Positions 1 through 60,402 of a stretch of 64,000 nucleotides of DNA are shown in pieces. The stretch lies in contig JBGSXW010000005.1 of the NCBI GenBank assembly GCA_041751215.1, forward strand, positions 3,664-67,663, written 5' to 3'. How positions within the stretch are numbered: the first letter of the stretch is position 1; the number at the start of each line of letters is the position of its first letter. The stretch is from Candidatus Saccharimonadales bacterium (lineage in GTDB: Bacteria; Patescibacteriota; Saccharimonadia; Saccharimonadales; JBGSXW01). A model generated the notes under the pieces. That model ran no database searches. It saw only the letters and a list, made by a program, of their open reading frames with translations, and was not told where the DNA came from. Made by a program: the position numbers and the translations under genes.

Positions 1-29
1 GGGACAACAAGCAAACCTCGTTACTATTT

Positions 30-422: not shown

Positions 423-499
423 CTATGCTGTGGGTATTTGGGTTACTTTTGTTTATAGCCTAACAACGTTAGAATATAGTTAAGGATGAGAAAAATATA

Positions 500-3400: not shown

Positions 3401-3541
3401 CTGTTGCAGCTTTTTGAAAAGTATCGCCTTGAATGCTCGGAGCTTGACTTAAAAATTAATCAATTCGACCGTGAAATCGACCAGCTTGTCTACGAACTTT
3501 ATGACCTCACTAATGAAGAAACTAACCTTATAGAAAAATAA
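500..3541 (+). CDS. type IIG restriction endonuclease / N6-adenine DNA methyltransferase (MmeI-like fused enzyme)
   Basis: 1013 aa. N-terminal PD-ExK-like motif (PDAVLGF...AAAVELKG). SAM motif I VVDPACGSGAFLV. Catalytic motif IV VVGNPPYG. Long C-terminal specificity-like region. Confidence 0.85.
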   Translation: MANLFGKNKLRDKALRLDTESLEDKIAIVKTWHHDYHNGSLKKDKETSREQAYNSDFFIKILGYKEKPSVPYSLEPKATTEKGQLPDAVLGFTDVTKGIVNIAAAVELKGASVELDRPQRREGNMSPVQQGFKYKSQYRNCPFVIVSNFWEFRLYHDNQLDYELWTLDDLIDPKDDYIKFKTFYTLIHSDNLTSPKGSSKTEDLLSDVRLEQEEIGRKFYKVYGQARHELLRDIYKKNEHIKTDIDTGIEKAQKIIDRIVFACFAEDRGLLPDDTLQRVIKAADTSTFGGSLWSTFKAFFEAIDAGSEKLDIPDGYNGGLFAHDSVLNSLQISDDALRSVANISNYNFAESLSVTILGHIFEQSISDLEEIKNKVNESHSLNTLQQSRRKKDGIFYTPDYIVRYIVDNSLGTYLREYEERFKQEFSLKGDINDKNYEKREKQAYSKYQEFLQNVKVVDPACGSGAFLVYVFDYLLAENKRVASILGNNLFSSEDYIKSILQNNIYGVDLNEESVEITKLSLWLKTAQKGKKLTALDDNIKCGNSLIDDPTIAGSKAFNWQEQFADIFKDGGFDIVVGNPPYGVSFSAEEKAYLSKFDNLVSDYEAYIYFISLVKKLVKPAGMLSYIFPNTFLSTLYGKKYREQLFSNYSVFEMVDLSRDPTFSDASVRTVIVSIKNSSKNYSSQLNVIDISKNIVSFAKYSKDDLLKNSENLLVLFTRSDEASALVQKILRQSKPLKDYFSISQGLIPYDKYRGHDEHTIKNRIWHSDTKKDETYRRELKGGDITRYSLNWNGGLWISYGDWLAAPREPKFFREPRILVREITDDQLYCVFTDEEYYNTPSLINCVGNKGVDQMSILAIMNSKLLGWYHNNTSPKANKGLFPKILVNDVRNLPIVTPTNSKELSSRAAVMLNLNNKLESNSQHFQNLLSSEFKLDKWPTKLSKWWRLEFTDLVTALKLKLSLQQKDELLQLFEKYRLECSELDLKINQFDREIDQLVYELYDLTNEETNLIEK

Positions 3542-3546
3542 TAGAA

Positions 3547-4098
3547 ATGGGCAAATTAGAGATTTTAGATGTGTTATTAAGCAATATGGCTGTTTCTATC
3601 GGTAGAAACATACAGACGATTGAATCCATTGCGACAATCGCTGCTATTTGCGCTGGTCTTTGGTGGTTCTATAAAAGACGAGAAAAAGCTCCCAGGGCTA
3701 ATGTAGAACACCAAGTTAAGTTCATTGACCTAAAAAATGGAACTGTCTATGTGGGTGTTCATGTAAGCATTCAAAATACCGGCAATGTGATAATACGGCC
3801 AAAGGTCGAACAGAATCCCTCAAGCGTTGTAGTTGTTGAAGAACTTATGCCATACCTCAATAAGAAGCTTGAGTCACAGGAGCTATCGCCTGAGTATAAA
3901 ATGGGCTTTCTTGGGTCACGGACTTTTCCGCCAAAGATATGCATAGAGCCAGGAGAGAAGCAATCAATTCTATTCGAGTTTGTAATTCAGGGCAGTACTA
4001 AATCGATTAAAGTTTATTCACATATAGATAACAGCTATAATGGTGGTATAGGTTGGGACGCAACAACAATTCATGAGGTAAGATATGAGCGAGAATGA
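3547..4098 (+). CDS. hypothetical membrane protein
   Basis: 183-aa ORF 6 nt after the RM stop; one N-terminal hydrophobic helix (IATIAAICAGLWWFY). Confidence 0.5.
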   Translation: MGKLEILDVLLSNMAVSIGRNIQTIESIATIAAICAGLWWFYKRREKAPRANVEHQVKFIDLKNGTVYVGVHVSIQNTGNVIIRPKVEQNPSSVVVVEELMPYLNKKLESQELSPEYKMGFLGSRTFPPKICIEPGEKQSILFEFVIQGSTKSIKVYSHIDNSYNGGIGWDATTIHEVRYERE

Positions 4099-4288
4099 CC
4101 AGAAAAAGATAATCCAAGAGCAAGCTGAGGCAAATCAGAGAATTATTCAAGCTGTTGAGCAACAGCAAGAGGGCACATTTCAAGGTCAAGCACCTGTCAA
4201 TGAAAGAATAAAGCAAATGGGACCAAACGAGAGAATAGAAAATAAACCACAGCCTTCACCTCCAGAAGAAGACAGTAAACCAGAATAG
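4085..4288 (+). CDS. hypothetical small Q/E-rich protein
   Basis: 67-aa ORF overlapping the previous stop by 14 nt; low complexity. Confidence 0.3.
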   Translation: MSENDQKKIIQEQAEANQRIIQAVEQQQEGTFQGQAPVNERIKQMGPNERIENKPQPSPPEEDSKPE

Positions 4289-4357
4289 GTAGCTCCTAAG
4301 CACAAGAATGTGTTAGGCTAGTCCTACATGATGTAAGGGTATACTCTCCTCGCTTTA

Positions 4358-4424
4358 CTATAGCTTTTTTGCGTTTTTATAGTATAGTTAGCGCATCAAC
4401 GCATGAGTTTTGTGTGTTGGGAAC
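4358..4424 (+). promoter_or_regulatory. conserved 5' module of GC-rich cassette 1 (putative -10 TATAGT at 4383-4388, then leader GCGCATCAACGC...TTGGGAAC)
   Basis: Aligns with 5630-5698 (CTATAG..TTTTT..TATA(G/A)T..GCG(C/T)ATCAA(C/T)GC..TTGTG..GTTGGGAAC). Confidence 0.5.
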
Positions 4425-4471
4425 TTTTCGGTGATGTCAGAAGTAATTTCGACGATTAGAAAGGTGTTACG

Positions 4472-4678
4472 GTGACGAACATCGGTAGAACACATGATAT
4501 CGGGCTCGTCTACGACGGCCCCGCCAACATGCCCGCCCCTCGACCGATCGAGGCCGCGGAAAACCGCTTCCTCGACGCAGTCGCAGTCCTGATGGTGATC
4601 GCCATACCCTTTGTGATCGCCATACCCTTTGTGTTCGCCTACCGCAAGTTCCGCGAGTTGATCTTCCGCAAGTCCTAG
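4472..4678 (+). CDS. small hydrophobic protein, GC-rich cassette 1
   Basis: GTG start 5 nt after AAAGGTG; 68 aa; contains a duplicated VIAIPF segment in a predicted TM helix. Confidence 0.45.
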   Translation: MTNIGRTHDIGLVYDGPANMPAPRPIEAAENRFLDAVAVLMVIAIPFVIAIPFVFAYRKFRELIFRKS

Positions 4679-4709
4679 CAGACGGTTCGCCGTCAGAAAG
4701 GAGCGTCCA

Positions 4710-5096
4710 ATGGAGACGCTGCGCAGCAATCAGATCAAGCTGAAGCCGCTCAGAACAACGGGCGACTATGTGTTGGCCGATGAGCTTGGCAACAACTTCT
4801 TCGGCCTGGGGACGATCGAGCAGGCTCTGACCTTTCGGGGTCAGCGCTTCCTCTACCGGGGCTGCACGATCACCATCATCGAGCATGATGAGATGCCCGG
4901 TGCCGTCTTGCCGGTAGTGAGAGTCCACTCCGCCCCCTGCAAGCAGTGCCAGGCCAAGGTTTCGACCATCTGCCATCTCGAGACCTCGTGGACCCTCGTC
5001 CAGCTCAGGCTCAAATACGAGATGTGGCGCCATCGTTGCAACTACGACCGCCTGGTCGTCGACGTCCTGCCGCCCATCAACGTCAAGCCCACCTAG
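4710..5096 (+). CDS. small CxxC protein, paralog 1 (GC-rich cassette 1)
   Basis: ATG preceded by AAGGAG. Shares the pattern GQxF..G...(~25 aa)..CxxC...(8 aa)..W with ORFs 5124-5501 and 5826-6578. Confidence 0.55.
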   Translation: METLRSNQIKLKPLRTTGDYVLADELGNNFFGLGTIEQALTFRGQRFLYRGCTITIIEHDEMPGAVLPVVRVHSAPCKQCQAKVSTICHLETSWTLVQLRLKYEMWRHRCNYDRLVVDVLPPINVKPT

Positions 5097-5123
5097 GTCA
5101 CCTACCACAAGCGAGGCGGTTCA

Positions 5124-5501
5124 ATGCCAAGCAACATCCAACTCCAACCCATCCGCAATCGAAGGGACCGGCGTCGAGCAGCTCAGTACGGCAATTCCCT
5201 GTTCGGGCTCGGTCTCCTTCCGGAAGAAGGCCTCACAAGCGGACAGAAGTTCACCTTCTGCGGCTATCTGATCCAGTACTTCGATGGTCGATTGGTTTCG
5301 CCGTCGAGAGATGGTCAATCCAACTTCTACCGAAGCAAGGTCACGTGCTTCTGCCCGTGCTGTGGCGAGGAGATGAGCGAACTGTTCAACTTCGACACCG
5401 AATGGACCGAGGTTCATCAGCACATGTGCGGAGAGCGTGACGCCCACCAGTGTGACGCGCCCGAGCTGGCTGTACCGGATGCGAACTTCGCTTCCGTCTG
5501 A
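5124..5501 (+). CDS. small CxxC/zinc-ribbon-like protein, paralog 2 (GC-rich cassette 1)
   Basis: SD-like GAGGCGG upstream; motifs SGQKFTFCGY, CPCCGEEM, TEW, and a second Cys pair MCGERDAHQC. Confidence 0.55.
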   Translation: MPSNIQLQPIRNRRDRRRAAQYGNSLFGLGLLPEEGLTSGQKFTFCGYLIQYFDGRLVSPSRDGQSNFYRSKVTCFCPCCGEEMSELFNFDTEWTEVHQHMCGERDAHQCDAPELAVPDANFASV

Positions 5502-5558
5502 CATCATCCACCGTGCGCCGGCAGGAACCACTCTTTCCCAAGAGACTCCTGCCGGCGC
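5499..5558 (+). repeat. conserved 3' module of cassette 1 (TGA-CATCATCCACC + 40-nt nested hairpin CGGCAGGAACCACTCTTTCCCAAGAGACTCCTGCCGGCGC)
   Basis: The 40-nt core 5519-5558 is identical to 6599-6638. Confidence 0.8.
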
Positions 5559-5575
5559 CATCAACTTTGTTTAAG

Positions 5576-5597
5576 CCCTCAGATTGAGGGATTTTTT
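5576..5597 (+). terminator. intrinsic terminator candidate
   Basis: CCCTC-AGATT-GAGGG followed by ATTTTTT. Confidence 0.5.
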
Positions 5598-5629
5598 ATG
5601 CTCAAAATCAACAAAAGCACTACCGTAAA

Positions 5630-5698
5630 GCTATAGACTTTTTACTGTTAATCTTGTATAATCTGCGTATCAATGCGTCTTGTGACGGGTTGGGAACG
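5630..5698 (+). promoter_or_regulatory. conserved 5' module of GC-rich cassette 2 (extended -10 TGTATAAT at 5655-5662, then leader GCGTATCAATGCG...TTGGGAAC)
   Basis: Homologous to 4358-4424. Confidence 0.5.
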
Positions 5699-5825
5699 TT
5701 AAGATGATGGTCAATTCCCCTAAGTTTAATTCGAGTACTCGAATGTGGCTTTGAGGTTGCACTAAACATAGGCAGCTTCTGAGCCATATTCGAGCAACAC
5801 TCGTGACAACAAGGGAGATAACAAC

Positions 5826-6578
5826 ATGTTCAAGTTCATCAGCAAGCTGTTCAAGAAGAAGTCGGAGGAATCGGCCTACAAGATCTGGGGTCGCCACGAG
5901 CTGCCGCTCCCCAAGGGCCCAAACAGCACCTGGACGGACCGCCTGATCGGTCAGGAGTTCGTGATCGACGGCTACAACTTCGTGATCGTCGGGGAATCGA
6001 ACGCCCACGAGGGGATCTCGGCCCGTCTCGAACTTCCGTGCAAATCCTGTGGCCAGCCACATCGCTTGTGGCTCAGCGTCACCGCGACCTGGGATGATGT
6101 GCTGATGACGATCTTGAGCTTCGCCGAGAAGAGCTGCGACGACTGCAACCAGGTGCTCAACGGTGATATCGACCGCGTCGAAGAGGAGATGGCGAAGAAC
6201 GTCGAGGAGTGGAAAGGCATCGAGAAAGCTCTCGTGGCTTCCGGCCTCGACCTCGATTCCCTCGACCTCTTGGTCAACGACTCCGGCGAAGTCGACTGCG
6301 TCAGCCAGTTCCTCTGGCTCAAGTCTGGCTGGGTACCGCTCTGGCTGTACAGCCGTCGTGGTTTCCCAAGGGATCTGAGCAAGATAAACGAGCTCAAGCA
6401 CATGCTCGGCGTCAACGCCCACATCGAGGGAAACCTGATCTGCTTCTCGCCGATCCATGTGATGCGACCCAGTCGGATCGAAGAGTTCAACGAAGAGCTG
6501 GCAGAACTCCGCAAGCACCAGAACACCATGGAAGCCCACCGCCTCGCCCGCGCGTCGCGCAACACGAGCTCCATCTGA
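5826..6578 (+). CDS. CxxC/zinc-ribbon-like protein, paralog 3 with a C-terminal extension (GC-rich cassette 2)
   Basis: ATG preceded by AGGGAG; motifs IGQEFVIDGY, CKSCGQ, TATW, CDDC; 250 aa. Confidence 0.55.
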   Translation: MFKFISKLFKKKSEESAYKIWGRHELPLPKGPNSTWTDRLIGQEFVIDGYNFVIVGESNAHEGISARLELPCKSCGQPHRLWLSVTATWDDVLMTILSFAEKSCDDCNQVLNGDIDRVEEEMAKNVEEWKGIEKALVASGLDLDSLDLLVNDSGEVDCVSQFLWLKSGWVPLWLYSRRGFPRDLSKINELKHMLGVNAHIEGNLICFSPIHVMRPSRIEEFNEELAELRKHQNTMEAHRLARASRNTSSI

Positions 6579-6638
6579 CCATCATCCACCCCTTGCGTCG
6601 GCAGGAACCACTCTTTCCCAAGAGACTCCTGCCGGCGC
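6576..6638 (+). repeat. conserved 3' module of cassette 2
   Basis: TGACCATCATCCACC plus the same 40-nt hairpin as 5519-5558, followed by a T-run. Confidence 0.8.
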
Positions 6639-6664
6639 ATTTTTCTTTTCATCGCCCTTTTCCA

Positions 6665-6854
6665 CGCATCAGCTAAAACTCCTGAATTTGGGAGGGAGAA
6701 ACCCGGCGTAGCGAGGACTGTCCGCCAGCCGGCGGACGGGTTCCGCAGCCGCCCGAGTCCTTGGGTGAGCCAAGCTCATGAGAGTTTTTACAGCAGCGGG
6801 AAAGTTTTGAGCCACTTTTTAAAAAGTGGCGACCACCCCCGTCGTGGAAACGAC
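6665..6854 (-). repeat. element A, copy 1 (subfamily A1)
   Basis: Near-identical over long stretches to 47225-47395, and reverse-complement homologous to 19134-19311 and 55449-55636. Contains the palindrome GCCACTTTTTAAAAAGTGGC (6811-6830). Confidence 0.8.
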
Positions 6855-6879
6855 AAGCAAATTTAAGTTCTTAAAACGC

Positions 6880-7296
6880 CTAGCTAGCTAAGAGCCCAAA
6901 AACCAGGCCCATCATCGCATAACTTGTAACCACAAACAGCGCGTCAATAACTAGTAGTTTCTTGCGTCGCTTACCGAAGCCGTACATGGTAACTAGCGTT
7001 GTAACGGCGATACCCGAGCCGATAAAGGCTGCGTCAAACATCCCGTCAACCACTCCTTTAACGCCAATTAGTACTAACCCCAGAACTGTTGCACTAACAA
7101 ACGCCATCACCACCATTACGGCCATCATGGTCATGTTGGTTGACTCTAAGTCCTTCTTTTTTAAGCCAGAGGCTTTCATCCACTCGTTGCCGGCTACTGC
7201 TGGGCTATACCAAAGCATTCCCCAAAGAATGCTAACTACAGCTGCCACGACAACAGCCGACCAATTTAGGTTTTCTAGTGCTAATGAGAAGTCCAT
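6880..7296 (-). CDS. DUF1761-like membrane protein
   Basis: 138 aa, four hydrophobic helices; N-terminus NWSAVVVAAVVSILWGMLWYSP..W is paralogous to ORF 32005-32421. Confidence 0.55.
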   Translation of the reverse strand: MDFSLALENLNWSAVVVAAVVSILWGMLWYSPAVAGNEWMKASGLKKKDLESTNMTMMAVMVVMAFVSATVLGLVLIGVKGVVDGMFDAAFIGSGIAVTTLVTMYGFGKRRKKLLVIDALFVVTSYAMMGLVFGLLAS

Positions 7297-7465
7297 AGCT
7301 CCCCTCCTTTGTAATTACTTAAGCTTATTCTAACACTGGCGCAATTAAACCCCAATTGACTCTGTGGTTGCTTGTGCTATAACTGAACAGTTCGCTTTAG
7401 GGGTGAACGAGGTGTACCAGAGGCCTCAGAAGCAAATACTCTGGTAGTACGTTGAGGAGGAAATC

Positions 7466-7816
7466 TTGGGCGTCATAACGGGTAACCGGGTTGGCCGCGA
7501 GGAACGAACTGCAAGTAGTGCTCGGCGAATCGATGAGGGCATGCTACCTGACGGACACGCCGTGGTGCTGATCCTGGGCAGTACGACCTACATCTGCTCA
7601 CACTGCCGCTACGCAGTCGTCATCGGTGAGTACACCCACAAAACGTCACCGGCCGGTACAGACCTGCTCGCTTTCAAAGACGAAGCTGGTGAGCACGACG
7701 AGCGGATCTGCGGCAAGCATTTCACCATGTACGACGATCGCCGCGACCAGGCCAAGCGCGCGCCGCTACCACAGTGGTTCGACCGCCTCGGATCAGTGAT
7801 CTACGACGAAGACTGA
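7466..7816 (+). CDS. hypothetical GC-rich Cys-containing protein
   Basis: TTG start 5 nt after GAGGAGG; CSHC...CGKH motifs; GC-richer than the flanks. Confidence 0.45.
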   Translation: MGVITGNRVGREERTASSARRIDEGMLPDGHAVVLILGSTTYICSHCRYAVVIGEYTHKTSPAGTDLLAFKDEAGEHDERICGKHFTMYDDRRDQAKRAPLPQWFDRLGSVIYDED

Positions 7817-7906
7817 CGGCTTTGGGTCGGGTGCGAGCGTAAGCTCACAAAGCACCCGGCCCTAGCCAGTCAATCCGAATCTCCTCCTCAACTTTTTTTC
7901 TTGAAT

Positions 7907-29641: not shown

Positions 29642-29689
29642 ATTGTAGATGTCCTCTAGGGTAAAAGCAAATTAAAGTGCTTATGTGTA

Positions 29690-29718
29690 TTGACATTTTA
29701 AGCATTAGAGTGTATAGT
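29690..29718 (+). promoter_or_regulatory. sigma70-like promoter (TTGACA-17 nt-TATAGT)
   Basis: Consensus -35 at 29690-29695 and -10 at 29713-29718, about 175 nt upstream of the GC-rich surface-protein gene. Confidence 0.6.
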
Positions 29719-29892
29719 GTTGCTCACTGTGATTTTGAGGTGGAAATCTCGTTAATCGCGGCACTTTTACAAACTGGGCTATCCAGGGAACAATGACTGC
29801 AAGATCAAGATTGTGGCCATCGTCCCCTGGATAACCATGGGAAAAACCGGCGCCTAACCAAGCGCCCCGAACCTCAGAAAGAGGTGATTTTG

Positions 29893-30594
29893 ATGAAGCA
29901 TCCCCGCTTCCTCATCGGAGCGCTCGCCATCATGGCGCTGTCGCTCTTCGCAACCCCGGCCTTCGCGGCCACCGCAACCATCAGCCCCGCCATGGGGCCG
30001 GCTGGCACCATCGTCAACATCAGCGGTGGCGAGTGCCTGCCGACGGAGGAGTTCCCGGTCCATCCTCGGGTCGGTTTCCTCGTCCGCGACGACGACGGCA
30101 ACGAGATCCACTTCGACCTCAACGTCGATGTCGACGAAGAAGGCATGTGGAGCTTCAGCTACGAGATCCCTCTGGTGGATACGGAGTACCTGGAGTTCCT
30201 CGCGTTCTGCAGCGGTGGAAACGGTACGGATCCGGCTCAACTCGTCGACTACGACAGCCTGATCTTCACCTACGCCGAGATCGGCCCGCCTCCGACCACG
30301 GAACCCGAGCCGACCACGACCACCACCGAGGCACCGCCGACGACCGAGCAGCCGACCACCACGGTCGAGCAGCCCGAACCCACGACGGCCCCGACGGTCG
30401 CACCCACGGTCATCACCAACCCCGAGTTCACCTCGCCTCCCGGCGGCGGTGTCCAGACGGACGGTGGTGTCCCTGATGAGGCTGCGCACGAGCAGAACAA
30501 CGCGCTCGTGTTCGGGATCATGGCCGGGTTCTTCGCCCTCATGCTGTTCCTGACCAGGAACAAGAAGGCCAAGAAGGTCAACAGCACGGAGTAG
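29893..30594 (+). CDS. GC-rich secreted surface protein: signal peptide, Pro/Thr-rich linker, C-terminal hydrophobic helix + basic tail
   Basis: ATG after AGAGGTG; signal peptide MKHPRFLIGALAIMALSLFATPAFA; PTTEPEPTTTTTEAPPTTEQPTTT; C-terminus ALVFGIMAGFFALMLFLTRNKKAKK. Confidence 0.7.
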   Translation: MKHPRFLIGALAIMALSLFATPAFAATATISPAMGPAGTIVNISGGECLPTEEFPVHPRVGFLVRDDDGNEIHFDLNVDVDEEGMWSFSYEIPLVDTEYLEFLAFCSGGNGTDPAQLVDYDSLIFTYAEIGPPPTTEPEPTTTTTEAPPTTEQPTTTVEQPEPTTAPTVAPTVITNPEFTSPPGGGVQTDGGVPDEAAHEQNNALVFGIMAGFFALMLFLTRNKKAKKVNSTE

Positions 30595-30804
30595 TTCTTC
30601 CCAGCAATGCCCAGCAAGCGAGCGGTCCGGGTGGGTCATTTGATTACAGACTCAACATCTGAACATCATCTGATCCACCCGGCCCTCGCAACACACTTTT
30701 CTAGGATAGATACAGATCTCACATCTGATTAACAGATGAGAAACCTATACCTGAACTAGAAACAACAGAGGTGACACTTTATTTCCACCCCTGTTATAAT
30801 GGTA

Positions 30805-30833
30805 TTGCTTTTTATTGACTAATTTGGTATAAT
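30805..30833 (+). promoter_or_regulatory. promoter candidate (TTGCTT-17 nt-TATAAT with TG extension)
   Basis: AT-rich block upstream of a ~250-nt leader preceding the sortase gene. Confidence 0.45.
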
Positions 30834-31091
30834 ATACAAGTTCAGTTGGGAGACTCTTAACTGATGAAGGATCAACATAATGATCCGACCTTACCAAGCT
30901 TTGGCAGCAAATTGTCTAGGGATTCTTACCCGGAACTACACCCCGCCCTCCCTGGGAGCACACCATCCAATCTATTCCATCGTACTCCTCATTCGCTTAA
31001 ATAATCGTGAGAATCATCTGAGAACTTTCCGCGTAGGACTCCCTAGACAAGGGACATTCGTCATCTGGCGAATTACAACAAAGGAGCAACA

Positions 31092-31835
31092 ATGCGCTTC
31101 CCCAAGCACATCCTGTTTCTGGTCTGGTTGACACTCGTGTTTTCCCTGACCAGCGGGTCGGTGCAGCAGGAGCGCTTCATGCTCCCTCCGCAACCCACCC
31201 AGGCGGCCGCAGAAGCACCTGCGACCACCACAAGCACCACCGAAAGGCGGGATCGTGTACCAACGTCCCAGGCGTCGACCAGACCCAGCAACCCGGCAAC
31301 AACAGCTCCAGCGCAGCCGACAACGACAGCGCCGGAAACCACGCCGGAACCCGCGGGAATCCCCCGCGTGGTGGTCGAATCGATTGGGGTGGATGAACCG
31401 CTCGTCGTAGGCAACTACTTCGACGAGAACGGCAACATCTCCCCGCCGTGGCAGACAGCCAACCTCTACGGGGGCGGCTCCATGCCTGGACAGGTTGGCA
31501 CGAGCCTCATCGCAGGCCACGTTTCGTCATCGACCTATGGACCCGATGTGTTCTACAACCTCGGGAACATCCAGATCGGCGACATCGTACAGGTCAGCGA
31601 TGGCACCACCAACTTCACCTATCAGGTGACGCTCATCCGCGTTCAGGACAAGCGCCTGCTCGCAACCAGCGAAGCCCCTGGTGAAGATCCCGACGCCGTC
31701 ATTCAGTGGTCTGACATGGAACGCGTGACCGATTGGTCCGTGCTCTACCTGATCACCTGTGGTGGCGAGTTCGGAAATGTCCGCCCGGGTAGTTTCGATT
31801 CGAACATCATCGTTCGAGCCGAGATCGTCCCCTGA
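31092..31835 (+). CDS. sortase family transpeptidase (class F-like), GC-rich
   Basis: AAGGAG SD; N-terminal TM; catalytic His context LIAGHVS; catalytic Cys motif LYLITCGG; conserved Arg near the C-terminus (IIVRAE). Confidence 0.8.
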   Translation: MRFPKHILFLVWLTLVFSLTSGSVQQERFMLPPQPTQAAAEAPATTTSTTERRDRVPTSQASTRPSNPATTAPAQPTTTAPETTPEPAGIPRVVVESIGVDEPLVVGNYFDENGNISPPWQTANLYGGGSMPGQVGTSLIAGHVSSSTYGPDVFYNLGNIQIGDIVQVSDGTTNFTYQVTLIRVQDKRLLATSEAPGEDPDAVIQWSDMERVTDWSVLYLITCGGEFGNVRPGSFDSNIIVRAEIVP

Positions 31836-32004
31836 CCCCGCTCAGCCAGAGCAAAACCAGGGCTGGAGGCCGCATGAGGAGAAGGTTGATCGTACTTAAC
31901 GATCCCCTTTACACTCCCTTGCGCGCCTCCAGTCCTAATCACACCCTTTGATTATTCGAACAGTTGGCCTAGCAAGGCTTAAGCCAAGAGTTCGAGAAAT
32001 TAAG

Positions 32005-32421
32005 CTAGTTTAACCAGCCGACAACGGCTCCCATTACTAACAGAGTTATGAGCTCGTTAGCTACCGTCATTAAAGTAAGTAGTCGCGGTCGTTGCTCAAA
32101 TAGGTCGTGTACGGAGACTCTGGTTAGCACAATTCCCAACCACAACCAAAAAGCCGTCATAACACCGGCTTCGATCTGAGAGACCTCAAAATAGGCCTCA
32201 GACACCTCCATAAACAGCACGAGCACGTAGGCTGTCACAAGCGATAGTAAAAAGGCCAAGCCCATTGCTGCGGGAGCACCGCGTTGCATGTCTTTATCGG
32301 TTAGTTTGACTAGTTTTTGCCACTTTGCACCCACCATCGGCTTGGAGTACCACCAGGCACCGACCAACATACTAGAGGCCGCACCGGCTAGCACAGCCCA
32401 CAAATTTACATGTACGTCCAT
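32005..32421 (-). CDS. DUF1761-like membrane protein (paralog of 6880-7296)
   Basis: NLWAVLAGAASSMLVGAWWYSKPMVGAKW. Confidence 0.55.
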   Translation of the reverse strand: MDVHVNLWAVLAGAASSMLVGAWWYSKPMVGAKWQKLVKLTDKDMQRGAPAAMGLAFLLSLVTAYVLVLFMEVSEAYFEVSQIEAGVMTAFWLWLGIVLTRVSVHDLFEQRPRLLTLMTVANELITLLVMGAVVGWLN

Positions 32422-32472
32422 AATTATTCCTCCTGTGTTTATAGAGGAATTATACTCCCACCTGGCAAGGTT

Positions 32473-32559
32473 CTAGTCCTTTAGCAAGTCGTCGATCCAG
32501 TTTGGATCTAGATCGTTCGAGTCGAGAATAGTTGTGATGGTTTCTGGTTGTTTTTGCAT
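32473..32559 (-). CDS. candidate 28-aa acidic micro-protein
   Basis: MQKQPETITTILDSNDLDPNWIDDLLKD; sits behind a copy of the duplicated promoter box; below the ORF-track cutoff. Confidence 0.25.
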   Translation of the reverse strand: MQKQPETITTILDSNDLDPNWIDDLLKD

Positions 32560-32583
32560 TTTTGTTTTAACTTTAGTTTTTAT

Positions 32584-32612
32584 ATACTAGCATACTTCTT
32601 GTGTTTTGGCAA
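32584..32612 (-). promoter_or_regulatory. promoter candidate TTGCCA-17 nt-TAGTAT within a 26-nt repeat
   Basis: 26 nt TAGCATACTTCTTGTGTTTTGGCAAG at 32588-32613, identical to 33176-33201. Confidence 0.45.
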
Positions 32613-32659
32613 GAGCCTGCTAGCGACTCTTAAGCCACGGCTCAGAGCGCAGGAATAGT

Positions 32660-33133
32660 TTACTGCTCTTCTGTTGGCTCTTCGGGCTCTTGGTTGCTCT
32701 CTAGCAGCTTAGCGTCTTGCTCAGGGATAGTTAGAGAATTAGGGTCCTGAGCGTAGTGCATCCTTAAGCGCTCTTGCTCCGATGGCGTTGTAGCCTTTGC
32801 CGAGAGATACTTAAAGGCCGCGCGTTTTTTGGGATCAATGGATGAATAGGCGTCGGCATTGTAGTTAGCGTAGCGCTCAGCCTGATCACCAACCGTATCA
32901 GACAAGCCAGCTTCAAGAGATTTTACAAAGTTACCGCTCAAATCATTTTCTGCCAGAAACTGTTCGGCTTCGTCGGCTAATTGTGAACCTTGTGCATCGG
33001 CTTGAGTAGTTAAGTGTGCATCCGCCACAAGAAGCCTTGCTAGATCCTCAACGACTGGCTCAGTAGCCTCGCGAACTGCTTCGGCTGCGTTTTCTAGGTA
33101 GGCTTGTTCACGTTCTGGCGGGATCTGATTCAT
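32660..33133 (-). CDS. hypothetical acidic protein
   Basis: ATG at 33133 (MNQIPPERE...) chosen; the track ORF extends to 33181 through the promoter box. Confidence 0.5.
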   Translation of the reverse strand: MNQIPPEREQAYLENAAEAVREATEPVVEDLARLLVADAHLTTQADAQGSQLADEAEQFLAENDLSGNFVKSLEAGLSDTVGDQAERYANYNADAYSSIDPKKRAAFKYLSAKATTPSEQERLRMHYAQDPNSLTIPEQDAKLLESNQEPEEPTEEQ

Positions 33134-33171
33134 TGTTGTTGAGCTTGTTTGTATCTTATATTTACAAACAT

Positions 33172-33200
33172 ACATTAGCATACTTCTTGTGTTTTGGCAA
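33172..33200 (-). promoter_or_regulatory. promoter candidate TTGCCA-17 nt-TAATGT within a 26-nt repeat
   Basis: Second copy of the box described at 32584-32612. Confidence 0.45.
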
Positions 33201-33220
33201 GGTTGGTAGTTTAGTGGTGA

Positions 33221-34027
33221 CTAAAATCTGCTGCGCGCTTCTCTTAGCTCTTCTTTGACCAACTGCATACGCTCTTTTGAACCTCTAAATGTGCCTTCTG
33301 CTATCAAACGCTCTACCAATCTAATCTGACCCCTAGTTTCAATCGTCGGTAGTTCAGAGTGAGGCTTGCTGTCTAAAAATCTTTGCAGCTCGCTTGTAAG
33401 CTCGTCGAATTCACTAGTCCGACCAGAGTGCCCATTATTTTTTCGGTGTTCGGTATTGCGCCGAATCATCGCCAGCCGCGAGGACGTAGAAATAACTTCC
33501 GGCTTAGGGACTATGGTCTTTGCTGGTTGAGAGGGCTCCGGCTTAGCTATCGGCTCTACAACTTCTGCCTCTTGAGTTATCGCTTCAGGCTCATTCTCTT
33601 CGTCTTCAAACATAGCGGCCACCAGACCTCTCAGCTCTTCATCGCTCTTGCCAATTGCTATGTCTATGATGATGCTTACATCCTGGGCTAGATCTGAGTC
33701 TGCGTCGGGCTCGTCCTCCAACGCTATCCTGATGAAATCATTGCAAAAAATTATCATGTCGGCGTAGCGCCGATCAAGAATCTGGTTGCCAATAAGGCGA
33801 CCGTCTACGTCTTGAGCAATCGCCAGCAGAGCTTTTGGATACTCGCCGAGCTCCCCGCTAGCAGGCTGCTTCTGCGCAAATTCCTTAACCACACCAAGAT
33901 AAGCCTCGGGGTTGGTGGCTAGCACTCGGATTAGATGCTCGTCGACTTCATCCGCATCATTTGCTGCCACTAGGCTCTCGACTTCACTCGAAACTAGCTG
34001 CTCATCGCTCACAGAACTGCTGCTCAT
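33221..34027 (-). CDS. hypothetical acidic protein
   Basis: ATG at 34027 preceded by GGAGGGG; the track ORF extends to 34111. Confidence 0.5.
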   Translation of the reverse strand: MSSSSVSDEQLVSSEVESLVAANDADEVDEHLIRVLATNPEAYLGVVKEFAQKQPASGELGEYPKALLAIAQDVDGRLIGNQILDRRYADMIIFCNDFIRIALEDEPDADSDLAQDVSIIIDIAIGKSDEELRGLVAAMFEDEENEPEAITQEAEVVEPIAKPEPSQPAKTIVPKPEVISTSSRLAMIRRNTEHRKNNGHSGRTSEFDELTSELQRFLDSKPHSELPTIETRGQIRLVERLIAEGTFRGSKERMQLVKEELREARSRF

Positions 34028-34119
34028 CGCCCCTCCGGTTTGTAAATTTATGTCCTGATTTTGGTTGATGACACAAGAAACGGCAAGCATGAGCGTAATC
34101 AACTGATACACTAGGCGCT

Positions 34120-35204: not shown

Positions 35205-35912
35205 TTACGTACTAAGAATCCACTCGATAACTTGTTTTTTGAGCTTGTAATACTGCTCTTCTTCCATCTGGATGTTGGCTATGCAAAACCTCTTCCCTCT
35301 GGTGTGTGAACAAAACATACATTCGTACATATCTCCTGCATCACTAATAAATAAGCTGTTTGTAATGTTCGCAGACCAAGAAACCGAAAAGCTATTACTA
35401 CAGTTTGTGGAGTCCTCTACCCGAGCGGAGTAGGCTAGGTTGTTAGATCTCTGTGAACCGACAACAAACTCGCTGTTTTTTGCGCCATCACTAAACAAAA
35501 TGTTCTTGGAGTAATGTACATCCAACGATCGATAGACCATCTCCGACTCGTAGATATTGTCGCTTTCAAAAACATTTAGCGAGTCTAAGTACCGCTCGGT
35601 GGTCGTGTAGTTAATTTCATTCCAGGCAGCTAAAACATCTTCGAGACTGTTCATCTCCCTCGGAGGCGGTGTAAAGTCCTGAAACGGCACCACACCACTC
35701 TCGTTCTGAGAGTTTTTCATCGTGATGAACTTGACCGGATTGGCAGACTGAGCCCAAGTTGACTCGCCAGTGATTGAGTCGTTTACTTCGACTGGCAAAC
35801 GCACATCGAACAAAAACTTCTGCTGAAATTGTTCCAATGTGTAGGGGTTCTTGTAGCCAAATATTTGAGCCACAATTTTATCCAAAATCTCTTGGGCGAC
35901 CTTCTCGTTCAC
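35205..35912 (-). CDS. hypothetical protein (downstream partner of the split ATPase)
   Basis: 235 aa; start abuts the stop of the ATPase gene; C-terminal CMFCSH..C motif. Confidence 0.5.
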   Translation of the reverse strand: MNEKVAQEILDKIVAQIFGYKNPYTLEQFQQKFLFDVRLPVEVNDSITGESTWAQSANPVKFITMKNSQNESGVVPFQDFTPPPREMNSLEDVLAAWNEINYTTTERYLDSLNVFESDNIYESEMVYRSLDVHYSKNILFSDGAKNSEFVVGSQRSNNLAYSARVEDSTNCSNSFSVSWSANITNSLFISDAGDMYECMFCSHTRGKRFCIANIQMEEEQYYKLKKQVIEWILST

Positions 35913-37883
35913 TATTGATCCTTCTTTCTGCGGTTAACCTTGAATCTACTAGACGAATGTTCGGACAAAATTGTACTTAGGTTAAGAAACTCTTCCTCGG
36001 GCTTTGGTTCTTCGGACACCTGCCCTTCAGTCTTTTGCTCTGTTTCTGAGGCTCTCTCAACAAACTTTGTTGGTACGGCTTTCTGCTCAACTGGAATCAG
36101 GTCGGCCGTACCATGTTGAAGCGGCGTAGCTAAGAAGTTTGCGTCAACGGTTCTAGCTTTTACGCACGGTATGATTTGACCATTAGCCGCTAATCTAACC
36201 AAGCATTCGCGTGGATTAAGCTCGGTTAAGATCTTAACGCGAATATCACTTTCTTTGAGCCCGCGGTCTTTCTCGGACTCAACTAGGGCTTTTGGTAGGT
36301 TAATCGATAAGTTTCCCTCAAGTGCGCGCGCATCTTCCTGAGAAACCTTGAACACATAGTAGTTGTAAACGTTGGCAAAAATTGCCGCCTGCAAATCGCG
36401 CTCAATCTGGCCAAAGTACTGCTGGCTCAAGATAACTGACAGATTAAACTTACGCGCCTCGGCCAAGACTTGAGCCAACGCGGGCGTCTGCACCACTGAT
36501 ACCTCATCAATAATTAAGATAATCTTTTCGTTAAAAGCTCTTGCCTGAGCCAGCAAGAAAATCTGTTGAATCAGCAAGCCAGCCACCGTCTTAACAACCT
36601 TCTCGCCCATGCTGACTTTGTTGAGCGAGAAGATGGTCAAGAAATTGCCCTTAACAACACTGGCCAGCGAGATATCGCTCTCTGCCCCCAAAGATGGTTG
36701 TAGTTGCATCTCCTCCACCAACGAAGTGATTGGCTGAATAGCCTCAGCGTAGTGTTGAGTGCGCATTTCGTTAAAGTCAGAGCCAAAAAAGTGCACAATG
36801 TTAGTCGGCACGTAGCCTTTAACATGCGCTAGTATCTGATTCCTAAACTCCAGATCAGTTAGCAGACGCTTCAGAGAGTCTAGCGACATGTTTTGAGCAG
36901 TAAATAGAACATATAGACTGAATCTTAAGGTTCGCTCCAGCCGTGGGTTAAACTGCTCACCAATCAGCGACCTAAACAGCACGGTTGTAAGTTCGGTTGC
37001 GGCTTGAATATCTTGGGCGCCCTCTGTAAACAGTTGGGTGCCTTCGTCGTGCGTGAAGTTGATGTTTTTACTAGATGGAATGTGCTTTAGGTCCTCGGCT
37101 AGTGCAGCGTGGGGGGTCAACAACGATAACTCGGTAGTTGTTGCGTTGCTCCGAGGCAGCCAAACGATCAATCATCAGACTTATGAGCTTAGATTTTCCG
37201 CTGCCGGTTGCTCCAACTAAAAACGAATGCTTATCAAACTCGTATTGAGGCAAGCCGATGAAGTACTGCTGGTTAAAGTAAGGAAAGCCATCAACACTAA
37301 AGAGCGCTCCGTGTTCGTCGCTGCTAAATAGAGGTGTAGCTTTTTCGATATCAAGATATTTAGAAATCGTCTTTTTGGTGTAACGACCGTTGTTGCCGGA
37401 AAAGTCGGCAGCAAGCAGGTTGGTTGGCAAAAATGTAAACATCTTGGGCGCTACAGAGTAAGTCCCAGCGGCGGTTTTAAAGTAGAACCGCCCTTTAACC
37501 ACGGCTTTGTCTTTATTGACGGCTCTGACGTTTAGAACAGCGTATTCCAGATCCTCGCCACTTTTTACAGCATACTTTTCTTTAAAGTCTAGTAAGTTAC
37601 CGCCGGCAACAAATTGCAGCATCCGCTTCTTTTTTCTGGTTTCAGGGATGTGGAACGCGTTTTTTGCAACTGGGCGCAAAAGCAATCCATCTAGGTTATT
37701 GGCAACCGCTCCAAGATCTTGATCGCTAAGCAAAAAATATCTAACGATGTTGTCTTTGATGCTGGTTACAATCTGAAACTTTGGCAAAACACCACTATAG
37801 GCATTTACCGCGTCATAGAGTTTTTGCCACTGTTTTCTCTCAACAGAATCAGTGAGCACATAAATTTCAAAGCAGTGTTTCAA
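35912..37883 (-). pseudogene. P-loop ATPase (HerA/VirD4/TraD-like) split by a +1 frameshift in a C6 tract
   Basis: ORF 37071-37883 carries Walker A (GATGSGKS) and ends ..[15 protein letters not shown] 35912-37171 continues ..[10 protein letters not shown].. and carries Walker B (IILIIDEVS). Removing one C of the run at 37111-37116 joins them as [14 protein letters not shown]. Confidence 0.65.
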
Positions 37884-37930
37884 GTTTGTTAATCCTTCTC
37901 AAGGATAGATTATATCAGGAAGTAAAGTGT

Positions 37931-38560
37931 TTAGGCTTTTCGGGCGGTAATTGCAAAACTATCGGACTCAAGATAGTCGGCTTGGCCGGCTTTAATGTAC
38001 TCGGCTTTAAAGTCTTTATCGTGGCGTTTGTGGTAGGCAATCCCCTTAAAACCCAAACCCTCAAGTAACTCCCTTGCCTTGTCGGGATCATAAAAGTCGC
38101 CAGCGTAACTTGGCGAAATTGTTTCGATAATTGTTAGTTCAGCACCTGGCCTCATGAGTTCGCGAGCATGCAAAAGCGTTTCGATCTTTGAGTCAAACTT
38201 CGACACCCGAGGCTGAATAGAGGCTGAGGTTTCTGGTTCTCCGAAAACGTTAGCCACTAAGACCCGACTTACTTTTTCTTCCGGTATAAGTTCGTGAATT
38301 AAATCTCTATCATGTAAGGCCGTGTAAACCGCGTAGCGGCTAGGTCCGATGTGCTTTTCGTTCATATGCCGGTGAGATCTGGGATCGATGTTCCAAGCCA
38401 CGTAAACGTTGTCTTCATCAAAATTATTCACCGAATCAGTCATGAGCATCGGGCGGCCTAAACCAGTGCCAACTTCTAAGGTCACTTCTTCGGCGGCTTC
38501 AATAGCCTCCTGAAACCTGGTGACCTCAGCGGCAAATGGATCTTCTAGGGTCTCAGTCAT
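37931..38560 (-). CDS. putative class I SAM-dependent methyltransferase-fold protein (paralog a)
   Basis: LEVGTGLG (motif I-like), WNID, ANVFGE, RPGAELTIIE; paralogous to 38777-39487. Confidence 0.4.
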   Translation of the reverse strand: MTETLEDPFAAEVTRFQEAIEAAEEVTLEVGTGLGRPMLMTDSVNNFDEDNVYVAWNIDPRSHRHMNEKHIGPSRYAVYTALHDRDLIHELIPEEKVSRVLVANVFGEPETSASIQPRVSKFDSKIETLLHARELMRPGAELTIIETISPSYAGDFYDPDKARELLEGLGFKGIAYHKRHDKDFKAEYIKAGQADYLESDSFAITARKA

Positions 38561-38566
38561 GATTAA

Positions 38567-38704
38567 TTAGCTTAGGTGGCTAAAACTACCGTCGGGCTGT
38601 TGGCCAAACAATTCACCTTCGTCGTCGGTAAATTGTAAGATATTGCCAACTTTTTGGTAAGCAATGGCTTGTTCGGGTGGTTCGAGTGTTAGTAGCTCGC
38701 TCAT
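38567..38704 (-). CDS. candidate 45-aa protein between the two paralogs
   Basis: MSELLTLEPPEQAIAYQKVGNILQFTDDEGELFGQQPDGSFSHLS; stop lies 6 nt before the next ATG; below the ORF-track cutoff. Confidence 0.3.
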   Translation of the reverse strand: MSELLTLEPPEQAIAYQKVGNILQFTDDEGELFGQQPDGSFSHLS

Positions 38705-38776
38705 GATTTTGCCTTTTGGATTTTGCTTTTGTTTTAGTTAAGTACAAAGCTACTGTAACAAAACTTAAGCGTTTTG

Positions 38777-39487
38777 TCAATTTTGTGATGTTGCGGGCTT
38801 TTCCCCCACCACCAGGTAGCTAAACGACGACATCCCGTAAGCAACACTGTACTTCATTAGCGCAGTGCGAAAGCGAATAGGAGTTTCATCGCCAGTCGTA
38901 ACAATGTTAACAAATCCCGCCTCCTCAAGAAGACGCTCAGGCCCTAGCCTACTATCATCGCCTGCTAATAGGCGCGACGAATGCTGTGAGCCATTCCATG
39001 GAGTGTAAGTTTCAATCAGTACTATTTGGCCTCCAGGCTTAATCAGCTCCCTTGCGAGCCTAAGGCTTTCGAACTTTTGAGTAAGCGGCGTTGCGCCTAG
39101 GTATTTGGGAAGCTGGCCAGTACTAGGGTTAATCTTGGTACCAAGATAGTGCTCGAGCCCAGGTCTCTCCCCGAGCACGTTAATTGCTACCGCCTCATCT
39201 ACGCTGTTGGACGGGACAATATCAAGCAGTCGTTCGGACTCTTCTATTGGCACGTGCACCGCTAGGCACCCATTGCCCATAAGTCTTTCCGTGTAGTAAC
39301 GATGTTGCCGCGAATCTATGTTCCAGCCAACGTAGACATTGCCTTCGTCAAAGTGATGCGGCCCCAGATTGCGTGGCAACGGATTAAGTCCAGTGCCAAT
39401 CTCAAAAGTGACGTGCTGAGCGCCTAAAATTGCATCTTGAAACTGATTGATTTCCGCTTGCCACGGATCGGTCATAACTTCTGTCAT
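38777..39487 (-). CDS. putative class I SAM-dependent methyltransferase-fold protein (paralog b)
   Basis: FEIGTGLN, WNID, INVLGE, KPGGQIVLIE. Confidence 0.4.
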   Translation of the reverse strand: MTEVMTDPWQAEINQFQDAILGAQHVTFEIGTGLNPLPRNLGPHHFDEGNVYVGWNIDSRQHRYYTERLMGNGCLAVHVPIEESERLLDIVPSNSVDEAVAINVLGERPGLEHYLGTKINPSTGQLPKYLGATPLTQKFESLRLARELIKPGGQIVLIETYTPWNGSQHSSRLLAGDDSRLGPERLLEEAGFVNIVTTGDETPIRFRTALMKYSVAYGMSSFSYLVVGEKPATSQN

Positions 39488-39552
39488 CGGCGCGACTATA
39501 ACAGATTAAAACTAAGTAAACAAAAGCGCTTAGCGCCTACTCGTGAGCTGAG

Positions 39553-47224: not shown

Positions 47225-47395
47225 CGCATCAGCTAAAACTCCTGAATTTGTGAGGGAGAAACCCGGCGTAGCGAGGACTGTCCGCCAGTTGGCGGACGGA
47301 CTCCGCAGCTACCCGAGTTTTGACTGAGCAAATTCAAGGATTGTTTTAGCTGCAGCGTGAAAGGTTTTGGGGCACCTTTTTTAAAAAGGTGTCGT
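47225..47395 (-). repeat. element A, copy 2 (subfamily A1)
   Basis: CGCATCAGCTAAAACTCCTGAATTTG.GAGGGAGAAACCCGGCGTAGCGAGGACTGTCCGCCAG..GGCGGACGG matches 6665-6740 almost base for base; palindrome at 47371-47393. Confidence 0.85.
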
Positions 47396-52323: not shown

Positions 52324-52509
52324 GGTTCTCCTTTTCTTAAGACCCAAGCACGTCGTGCCTGTGTAACAAAGTCCAAAGCATTCTTACGCTCTCAACTCTG
52401 TCACACACATGTAACACGCGGGGGTCTGTTGATTAATGATGGTACGACGACCTCTAGGTCTGTCTAAAAGCCGTTCCCAGAGTGGCAAAAGCCCGCCTAG
52501 GAATAACTT

Positions 52510-60374: not shown

Positions 60375-60402
60375 CCCCTAGTTACTTCGGAAAGGAGTAA
60401 TC

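Follow-up and report, generated by a model that had tools for sequence, protein, structure and literature searches.

Among the sortases, those of class F (NCBIfam NF033748; InterPro IPR042001) combine a membrane anchor, a stalk rich in Pro, Thr and Ala and a catalytic domain of ~155 aa, with Cutibacterium acnes SrtF, the enzyme of Streptomyces coelicolor and SrtF1-4 of Actinoplanes missouriensis as examples from the Actinomycetota. The only class F enzyme studied biochemically, that of C. acnes, uses LPXTG (PMC8225981), and the roles of the other class F sortases are described as unknown (PMC13251363). Another type of C-terminal signal is represented in NCBIfam by the model GVDTG_CTERM (NF058571), for which no paper was found in the literature searched. 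Here, two adjacent genes are described from a stretch of 64,000 nucleotides (hereafter the window) of contig JBGSXW010000005.1 of a Candidatus Saccharimonadales bacterium (GenBank assembly GCA_041751215.1), which encode a class-F-like sortase and, just upstream of it, a small secreted protein that is very likely its substrate. Judged from sequence, the pair is a divergent version of a class F sortase with a GVDTG-type substrate, known from two genomes in an unexpected phylum, and we favour, with moderate confidence, its origin in an old transfer of an actinobacterial-type two-gene surface-display module into a Saccharibacteria lineage, followed by fast divergence.

The class-F-like sortase

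The sortase follows the plan of the class F enzymes, with an N-terminal hydrophobic helix (residues 6-17) as predicted membrane anchor, a Pro/Thr-rich linker or stalk of ~55 aa (residues ~35-88) and a catalytic domain covering residues 89-247. The Pfam Sortase family (PF04203) matches residues 94-245 with 58.6 bits (cut-off 26.6; E=6.6e-16), and an AlphaFold2 (AF2) model based on 40 homologues has a mean pLDDT of 78, with values >90 across most of the catalytic domain. A Foldseek search of the PDB returns nothing but sortases in its top 50 (best E 3.8e-9; TM-scores to the target 0.49-0.74), in line with the eight-stranded beta-barrel of the sortase fold. In the NCBIfam ranking, class_F_sortase (NF033748) comes top at 70.2 bits against a cut-off of 166 bits, followed by class E at 31.5 bits, and the ortholog described below (P0002) scores 93.8 bits with the class F model, likewise under the cut-off; on such scores, class-F-like is the right wording for the window sortase. 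What it shares with the class F enzymes, apart from the domain plan, are the GHV and LITCGG motifs, an Asn at position 238 and a position just downstream of a gene for a small secreted protein with a C-terminal signal, and it departs from them in its lower score, in identities of 38% or less, in Arg242, in a 14-aa insertion and in its Saccharibacterium host. The insertion lies at residues ~188-210, ahead of the TCGG strand, and is found in none of the homologues.

Column counts over 266 aligned homologues place His143 of the LIAGHVS motif in 266/266 sequences and Cys223 of the LYLITCGG motif in 265/266. Position 238 is Asn in 249 of the 266 and Arg in a clade of 12 members from Chloroflexota and Saccharibacteria. 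The initial annotation had read from the DNA alone a class-F-like sortase with LIAGHVS, LYLITCGG, an N-terminal membrane helix and a PT-rich linker, and each of these elements was recovered at its place. The Arg that it listed as the last motif is present as Arg242 (NIIVRAE) and is kept in the single ortholog, yet it is a minority state found in 16/266 homologues, with Phe or Tyr in 212/266, and a catalytic role for it is not established.

Of the 80 genomic relatives that match the sortase best, nearly all are from Actinomycetota, at 30-38% identity, with a few from Chloroflexota and one from a Saccharibacteria metagenome-assembled genome (MAG), and none of the homologues outside Saccharibacteria exceeds 38% identity. 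The Saccharibacteria MAG in this set (SRP200132_co2_25, locus L021) is a case from the same phylum. At positions 2182-4546 of its contig, in the gene order of the window, the gene for a 570-aa surface protein precedes that for a class-F-like sortase in which the counterpart of Arg242 is likewise Arg. The surface protein ends in APNTG, an LPXTG-like signal (TIGR01167, 14.7 bits), and the pair has a GC content of 0.43-0.45 without compositional anomaly. This xPxTG-type sortase belongs, in contrast to the window sortase, to the separate 12-sequence clade with Arg238 (Chloroflexota and the Saccharibacteria MAG; also L013 and L053), and the sortases of this type are 31-34% identical to that of the window.

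The upstream protein as candidate substrate

The candidate substrate, encoded on the same strand (Table 1), is composed, in order, of a signal peptide (..PAFA|A), a domain of ~90 aa, a Pro/Thr-rich stalk, a sorting signal, a transmembrane (TM) helix and an RNKKAKK tail. The ~90-aa domain is acidic and beta-rich, with two Cys and no Lys. An AF2 model run without an alignment places, at low confidence, beta strands at residues 39-129 and a helix at residues 196-229, with a linker that is disordered; its pLDDT of 57 is too low for a fold search. By sequence the protein is an orphan, with a self match alone among 5.8e9 proteins, nothing significant in Pfam and NCBIfam, and only E > 1 in BLASTP comparisons with actinobacterial sortase-adjacent proteins. 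The absence of Lys from the mature protein before the C-terminal tail argues against pilus polymerisation, and a sortase-assembled pilin was rejected as a candidate on this ground.

The C-terminal region reads S-P-P-G-G-G-V-Q-T-D-G-G-V-P, followed by a spacer of ~12 aa, the TM helix and a basic Lys-rich tail (native sorting-signal peptide PPGGGVQTDGGVP). Within it, PGGGVQTDGG sits 51 aa from the C-terminus and the Thr lies 44 residues from it; cleavage after Thr189 is predicted. Its nearest counterpart emerged from the neighbours extracted for 80 class F sortase genes of GTDB species representatives (loci L003-L082). In 45 of these 80 loci, mostly from Actinomycetota, a same-strand open reading frame (ORF) near the sortase bears a GVDTG-type tail, and wherever such a tail is listed the gene is the upstream one. 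In these tails the pattern P-x-G-G-[V/A]-x-T-G-x-G-[G/S]-T is separated by ~20 residues from a TM helix, behind which Arg-rich sequence closes the protein; the Thr lies 37-53 residues from the C-terminus, and the actinobacterial neighbours score 16-47 bits with NF058571. The passenger domains are mutually unrelated (DUF4397, weakly CHRD-like, Asp-rich and small two-Cys domains), as expected for a sorting signal.

The window motif agrees with this consensus at Pro-6, Gly-4, Gly-3, Val-2, Thr0 and Gly+3, and the two systems have in common the spacer, the TM helix, the basic tail and the adjacent class-F-type sortase. They differ in that the window tail has Asp at +1, a TM helix rich in Phe, Leu and Met instead of Ala and Gly, and a tail rich in Lys instead of Arg, in the lack of a model match for the native window tail, and in a passenger domain with no detectable homologue. 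Introduction of Gly at the +1 position in silico (D190G) brings the tail to 14.9 bits with NF058571 (E=0.025; cut-off 29). With a hidden Markov model (HMM) restricted to the motif the substrate scores 4.0 bits among the window ORFs, and it ranks near the top with both this model and one built from whole actinobacterial tails (see below), neither being significant; a position-specific pattern count was relied on instead. Over 815,130 residues of six-frame ORFs the strict pattern has 27 matches, 24 of them 35-65 residues from the C-terminus of a sortase-adjacent protein and 3 off target, and among the 437 ORFs of the window it occurs in the substrate gene only. By score the tail thus falls outside the GVDTG family, and its relation to that family is best taken as a functional analogy, although a strong one.

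With LPXTG anchoring by sortase A, the window system would share the predicted chemistry, the tripartite signal of motif, hydrophobic segment and charged tail, and the sortase beta-barrel fold. It differs in the sortase class, in the motif GVQTD, with ~12 residues between motif and TM helix, and in the anchor scores: the substrate contains no LPXTG, Gram_pos_anchor (PF00746) reaches 12.9 bits (cut-off 20) through the TM helix and tail only, and TIGR01167 does not match. The variant of the GVDTG-type signal, the adjacency as in 45/80 loci and the conservation in the ortholog make the upstream gene a very probable substrate, as the initial annotation had proposed for a surface-protein gene ~500 nt away; from its stop codon (30594) to the sortase ATG (31092) the gap measures 497 nt.

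Conservation of the pair in a second genome

A single close relative of the window sortase was found in 5.8e9 proteins and 1.84e9 cluster representatives, namely P0002, encoded on a 2.4-kb contig of GCA_964349695.1 (L002), with 42% identity overall and 52% in the catalytic domain; in the set of representatives it is the one protein below 1e-30. The order on this contig is that of the window, with a substrate C-terminus, a promoter region, the sortase, a hairpin, a small reverse gene and ychF. The substrate fragment ends PPPGGGIQTDGGLP, followed by a TM helix and a basic tail. Its motif is PPGGGIQTDGG, with PGGGIQTDGG 53 aa from the C-terminus, and hence the Thr-Asp variant is common to both genomes. 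No further member of the clade was found when metagenome DNA was scanned with the conserved promoter block or when metagenomes were scanned with a protein pattern; a plasmid search gave no match, and a search of IMG/VR gave only relatives of 28-34% identity. The latter comprise 19 contigs classed as viral (L090-L108) that encode class-F-like sortases and that are probably prophage or mis-binned actinobacterial regions.

The YchF proteins of the two genomes are 84% identical, with a proportion of synonymous differences (pS) of 0.77, at which synonymous sites are saturated, and this saturation marks the two organisms as old relatives. The sortases are 42-50% identical, with pS 0.61. Set against the saturated synonymous sites, noncoding blocks of the locus are ~85-90% conserved. 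They include a block of ~110 nt at the sortase promoter, with the AACAGAGGTG..CACCCCTGTT repeat and TTGCTT-17-TATAAT. In both genomes, both genes are followed by 3' hairpins of ~30 bp (-44 to -50 kcal/mol, z -6 to -8.4), whose architecture is kept with many of the pairs changed.

Composition and genomic setting

The GC content at third codon positions (GC3) is 0.863 in the substrate gene and 0.738 in the sortase gene, as compared to a mean of 0.485 (sd 0.042, maximum 0.587) in 52 core ORFs, which corresponds to z = +8.9 and z = +6.0. The high GC3 spans folded domains and linkers alike, with third positions dominated by C and G, and the DNA between the two GC-rich genes is AT-rich, with a GC content of 0.35-0.37.

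By its YchF, whose named relatives are Ca. Saccharimonadales or Saccharibacteria at 68-69% identity (best others 74%), the host is a bacterium of the Saccharimonadia (Saccharibacteria), with ~48% GC. The pair is accessory. It shares a variable slot, beside a type IV pilus operon, with a DUF1761 gene and two genes for acidic hypothetical proteins, and the slot next to ychF lacks it in three relatives whose YchF is 73-74% identical: in L086 a pilM gene, a large protein gene and a TPR-like gene directly abut ychF with no insert, in L084 the slot holds an SLH-like protein and an M14 peptidase, and in L083 it holds different cargo again. No homologue of any of the slot genes, that is the pair, DUF1761 and the two acidic hypotheticals, was found in the loci of these relatives, and the pair is present in L002. 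The identical locus was recovered on a contig of an independent Logan assembly.

Putative promoters, leaders and 3' hairpins

Both genes appear to possess expression signals of their own (Table 1). The promoters are AT-rich and native-looking, and their function, like that of the presumed terminators, is predicted from sequence motifs and folding. Of the tandem promoters in front of the sortase gene, the one with GTGACA came from a consensus scan, and the one with TTGCTT was read off the sequence and is conserved in L002. The surrounding DNA (30701-30900) has a GC content of 0.35-0.37. The inverted repeat AACAGAGGTG-N12-CACCCCTGTT, which overlaps the upstream one of the two, is a possible operator; as RNA, the 76-nt stretch around it folds with z = -0.4 in the window and z = -3.07 in L002.

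Folding of the substrate leader (29725-29900) gives z = -3.96. The leader of the sortase gene is ~250 nt long, ~190 nt longer than in L002, and the extra stretch includes a segment of ~140 nt in which positions 30912-35 pair with 31027-50 at 87.5% by self-BLAST, arms that are also closed in the centroid fold. This segment resembles a small palindromic insertion, and no further copies of the leader or intergenic segments, as of a repeated mobile element, were found in the window.

The hairpin behind the substrate gene, which would act as terminator or stabiliser, has a counterpart in L002 (-49.5 kcal/mol, z = -8.13) with the basal stem kept and 2 compensatory pairs. The one behind the sortase gene, CTGGAGGC..GCCTCCAG, reaches -47.5 kcal/mol with z = -8.35, and 0/200 shuffles fold as well; its L002 counterpart reaches -46.0 kcal/mol with z = -5.98. 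Each of the two sortase hairpins has ~30 stacked pairs, and roughly half of these differ on both sides, in a pair-by-pair comparison made on minimum-free-energy stems whose register is ambiguous; RNAalifold on a non-structural MAFFT alignment was uninformative. In Rfam, no family scores above threshold in the leaders or the 3' region, the only match being a sub-threshold one to a plant miRNA, on the opposite strand of the hairpin. Other stable long intergenic hairpins of the window lie at 5716-5805, 7786-7875, 47236-47325 and 52336-52425, with -41 to -43 kcal/mol per 90 nt. With comparable long hairpins at other intergenic sites, those of the module look native in style, and long intergenic hairpins appear to be a general feature of the host genome.

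Table 1. Features of the sortase locus (window coordinates)
Feature	Coordinates	Strand	Basis and remarks
Variable slot, from the pilus-operon/TPR gene to ychF	29642..34119	.	Holds the pair, DUF1761 and two acidic hypothetical genes
Putative sigma70-like promoter of the substrate gene, TTGACA-17-TATAGT	29690..29718	+	Consensus scan, 11/12; predicted function
Long hairpin in the substrate leader, 26-nt arms	29777..29836	+	Inverted repeat
Candidate sortase substrate, 233 aa	29893..30594	+	ORF, translation, AF2, GC3
Predicted sorting motif PPGGGVQTDGG, residues 182-192	30436..30468	+	Variant of the GVDTG-type signal
3' hairpin after the substrate gene	30618..30689	+	Free energy -43.9 kcal/mol, z = -6.07; no U-tract
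Inverted repeat AACAGAGGTG-N12-CACCCCTGTT	30764..30795	+	Overlaps the upstream sortase promoter; nearly identical in L002
Putative tandem sigma70-like sortase promoters, GTGACA-18-TATAAT (30771-30800) and TTGCTT-17-TGgTATAAT (30805-30833)	30771..30833	+
Segment of ~140 nt in the sortase leader, 24-nt imperfect inverted repeats at its ends	30912..31050	+	Self-BLAST of the leader, centroid fold
Class-F-like sortase, 247 aa	31092..31835	+	Pfam, NCBIfam, AF2, Foldseek, alignments, column counts
3' hairpin after the sortase gene, CTGGAGGC..GCCTCCAG enclosing GATCGT-ACTTA-ACGATC	31859..31936	+	Folding

Origin of the module

The initial annotation had further described an AT-rich promoter belonging to the sortase gene, a ~250-nt leader, a structured 3' region and a GC3 unlike that of the core genes, all of which agree with the measurements given above, as does its supposition of a Saccharibacterium; in the comparison with relatives for which it had called, three of them lack the pair at the slot. 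Its main proposal, that the pair was acquired from an actinobacterial host, stands in part: the actinobacterial type of the module, the deviant GC3 and the variable slot speak for it, and a recent or direct origin is not supported, given identities of 38% or less and the old syntenic ortholog. Phylogeny and GC3 had been named as the means of refuting it; GC3 does differ, and the tree places the sortase in no identifiable lineage and names no donor.

The reading that we favour, in which a module of actinobacterial type entered a Saccharibacteria lineage long ago and diverged fast thereafter, draws on the type of the module. An actinobacterial-like donor is the most likely one since this type, an Asn238-type class F sortase just downstream of a GVDTG-type protein, dominates in Actinomycetota; Asn238 and a GVDTG-type signal are common to the window clade and the Actinomycetota-dominated radiation. 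In a neighbour-joining (NJ) tree the window sortase and P0002 group with a bootstrap of 100 and fall inside the Asn238-type radiation, but all deeper nodes have 42% support or less. The transfer would be old, since it predates the split of two Saccharibacteria with saturated ychF synonymous sites, and the module may later have moved between Saccharibacteria.

A number of observations weigh against this reading. The sortase remains far under the NF033748 cut-off, and no Arg can be confidently assigned as third catalytic residue. On the side of the signal, the +1 residue is Asp190 in the window and Gly in 45/45 actinobacterial tails, and Asp is not known at this place from any sortase signal. 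NF058571 (cut-off 29 bits) does not match the native tails of the window and of L002 at E up to 10, and the home-made HMM of actinobacterial tails gives the substrate 4.6 bits with E ~0.9. The deeper nodes of the NJ tree are weak, with 42% bootstrap for P0195 and P0232 as sister and 5% or less beyond that, and the profile preference for the actinobacterial set is slight (94 vs 87 bits). P0195 and P0232 are themselves locally GC-rich on contigs of 45-48% GC, a pattern consistent with either a gene pool other than the actinobacterial one or a GC bias of the gene itself. Nor does the pair stand out in L002, where GC3 is 0.69 for the sortase, 0.80 for the substrate fragment and 0.71 for ychF. Finally, the clade is carried by two genomes only, over 5.8e9 proteins, 1.84e9 cluster representatives and the metagenome-contig scans. 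As to the loci of P0195 and P0232 (L087, 1-1192; L088, 6001-6717; L089), their sortases have a GC content of 0.55-0.57 and a GC3 of 0.62-0.66, with contigs at ~0.45-0.48, and the upstream gene in L087, with a GC3 of 0.77, encodes a Pro/Thr-rich protein with a TM helix, a basic tail and another motif, GPSGLPGGP.

The closest of the rival explanations is a transfer within the phylum, in which the cassette with its promoters and hairpins came from a GC-richer Saccharibacterium related to L002, possibly through homologous recombination in the conserved flanks (the pilus operon and ychF), and any actinobacterial step lies earlier. In L002 the composition of the pair matches its surroundings (ychF GC3 0.71, pair 0.69-0.80), and by this match the proximate source may equally well have been a GC-rich Saccharibacterium; the noncoding DNA is ~85-90% conserved against saturated synonymous sites, the two genomes agree in chromosomal neighbourhood, and the slot is recombinationally variable in relatives. 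L002 itself would not be the donor, with sortases 42-50% identical at pS 0.61, its composition is known from the 2.4-kb contig alone, and purifying selection on regulatory elements would explain the noncoding conservation equally well. We regard this route as possible though rather unlikely. A native, vertically inherited sortase module of the Candidate Phyla Radiation (CPR), in which a gene-specific bias or selection would have raised GC3, is a still weaker candidate and seems improbable. Over half of the CPR genomes have sortases (PMC6744442), the Saccharibacteria MAG has a class-F-like sortase beside its substrate at native GC, P0195 and P0232, the nearest relatives though with weak support, likewise exceed their own contigs (45-48%) in GC, and GC3 has stayed high in the face of saturated synonymous sites. 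Against such a history, the pair is absent from the slot in the three relatives with 73-74% YchF identity and has two known carriers, the sortase of the Saccharibacteria MAG falls in the other clade, with Arg238 and an xPxTG signal, Asn238 together with a GVDTG-type signal unites the window pair with Actinomycetota, and no known mechanism holds GC3 at 0.86 in one small gene.

A recent and direct acquisition from an actinobacterial host, with high GC3 as an un-ameliorated signature of the donor and only the promoters native, would account for the GC3 of 0.86 and 0.74 against 0.485 in the core, for third positions dominated by C and G as in high-GC Actinobacteria, for the type of the module and for its variable slot. 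It is very unlikely, as the best actinobacterial identity is 30-38% and the only match below 1e-30 in 1.84e9 representatives is the Saccharibacteria ortholog, at the same locus and with ychF saturated; moreover, the AT-rich promoter block and both hairpins are common to the two genomes, by which the cassette with its noncoding DNA is old within Saccharibacteria. A chimeric assembly, in which actinobacterial reads were mis-joined into a Saccharibacteria contig, would fit the abrupt change of GC limited to two genes. It was rejected as next to impossible in view of the identical locus in the independent Logan assembly and the synteny in a different genome, and it is also at odds with the conserved AT-rich intergenic DNA between the GC-rich genes and with the lack of any actinobacterial sequence more than 38% identical.

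Proposed course of events and mechanism

If the old transfer from an actinobacterium-like donor is accepted, the module would have crossed the phylum boundary, in a direction and at an age suggested by its distribution, and would then have acquired or kept conserved regulatory DNA of native style. The sortase would have diverged to 42-50% identity between the present carriers, and the residue after the scissile Thr would have changed from Gly to Asp. The two genes would be transcribed separately, each from an AT-rich promoter of sigma70 type, and each would have a structured leader and a long 3' hairpin lacking a U-tract. By analogy with the established sortase mechanism, the substrate would be exported by Sec and retained through its C-terminal helix, after which a centre formed by Cys223 and His143 would cleave after Thr189 to give a thioacyl intermediate. 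Transfer to the amine of a peptidoglycan precursor would leave the acidic domain covalently attached to the wall on its Pro/Thr stalk. The proposal can be carried further, to the point that the Gly to Asp change and, co-varying with it on the sortase, Arg242 and the 14-aa insertion next to the active-site strand constitute a new sortase specificity displaying an adhesin tuned to the actinobacterial host and, in its boldest form, that the stalked protein is coupled to host peptidoglycan precursors at the contact site; we rate this extension as highly speculative and hardly probable.

Other features of the window

On the other side of ychF, ahead of the FtsJ/EF-P/SSB genes, a second lineage-specific insertion occupies 35205-39500, at a place where FtsJ follows straight after ychF in relatives. 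It encodes a 419-aa protein (35912-37171) with a weak match to the DNA-binding domain of TrwB/VirD4 coupling proteins, and it may be what is left of a conjugative element. The start of the window (1-4100) is a low-GC islet (0.38-0.40) with two small ORFs and a 1013-aa MmeI/Eco57I-like type IIG/IIL restriction-modification enzyme (500-3541).

A second GC-rich islet lies at 4400-7900 (GC 0.50-0.57) and consists of small plus-strand ORFs with very high GC3, namely 4710-5096 (0.85), 5124-5501 (0.69), 5826-6578 (0.84) and 7466-7816 (0.69), the second of which is by eye an apparent paralog of the first. None of them has a Pfam family above threshold, and the opposite strand carries long, spurious-looking ORFs. 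Divergent DUF1761 paralogs of 138 aa each, at 6880-7296 and 32005-32421, both on the minus strand, adjoin one GC-rich islet each and are convergent with a GC-rich gene, which may be coincidence or reflect a shared insertion context. The third GC3-rich islet in the 64 kb (59781-61092), between fpg and a HAD-like gene, encodes two tandem paralogous multi-TM proteins that both start with MFDDRGS and have no Pfam or NCBIfam family, with a GC3 of 0.73 (z = +5.8) and 0.60 (z = +2.6).

Implications

The locus carries a caution for studies of gene transfer, as a GC3 anomaly of z = 6-9 stands here beside signs of long residence, and composition alone would lead to a wrong age. For the enzyme family, class F sortases, whose roles are described in the literature as unknown, are seen to be systematically paired with an adjacent GVDTG-type substrate, and the Thr-Asp signal might widen the set of specificities known for sortases. 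Attachment to Actinomycetota is the way of life of Saccharibacteria; the manner of binding is understood only in part, with type IV pili implicated in it (PMC11623550). A wall-anchoring module of the type found in the host phylum, placed beside the pilus operon, is a concrete candidate for a surface factor of these bacteria.

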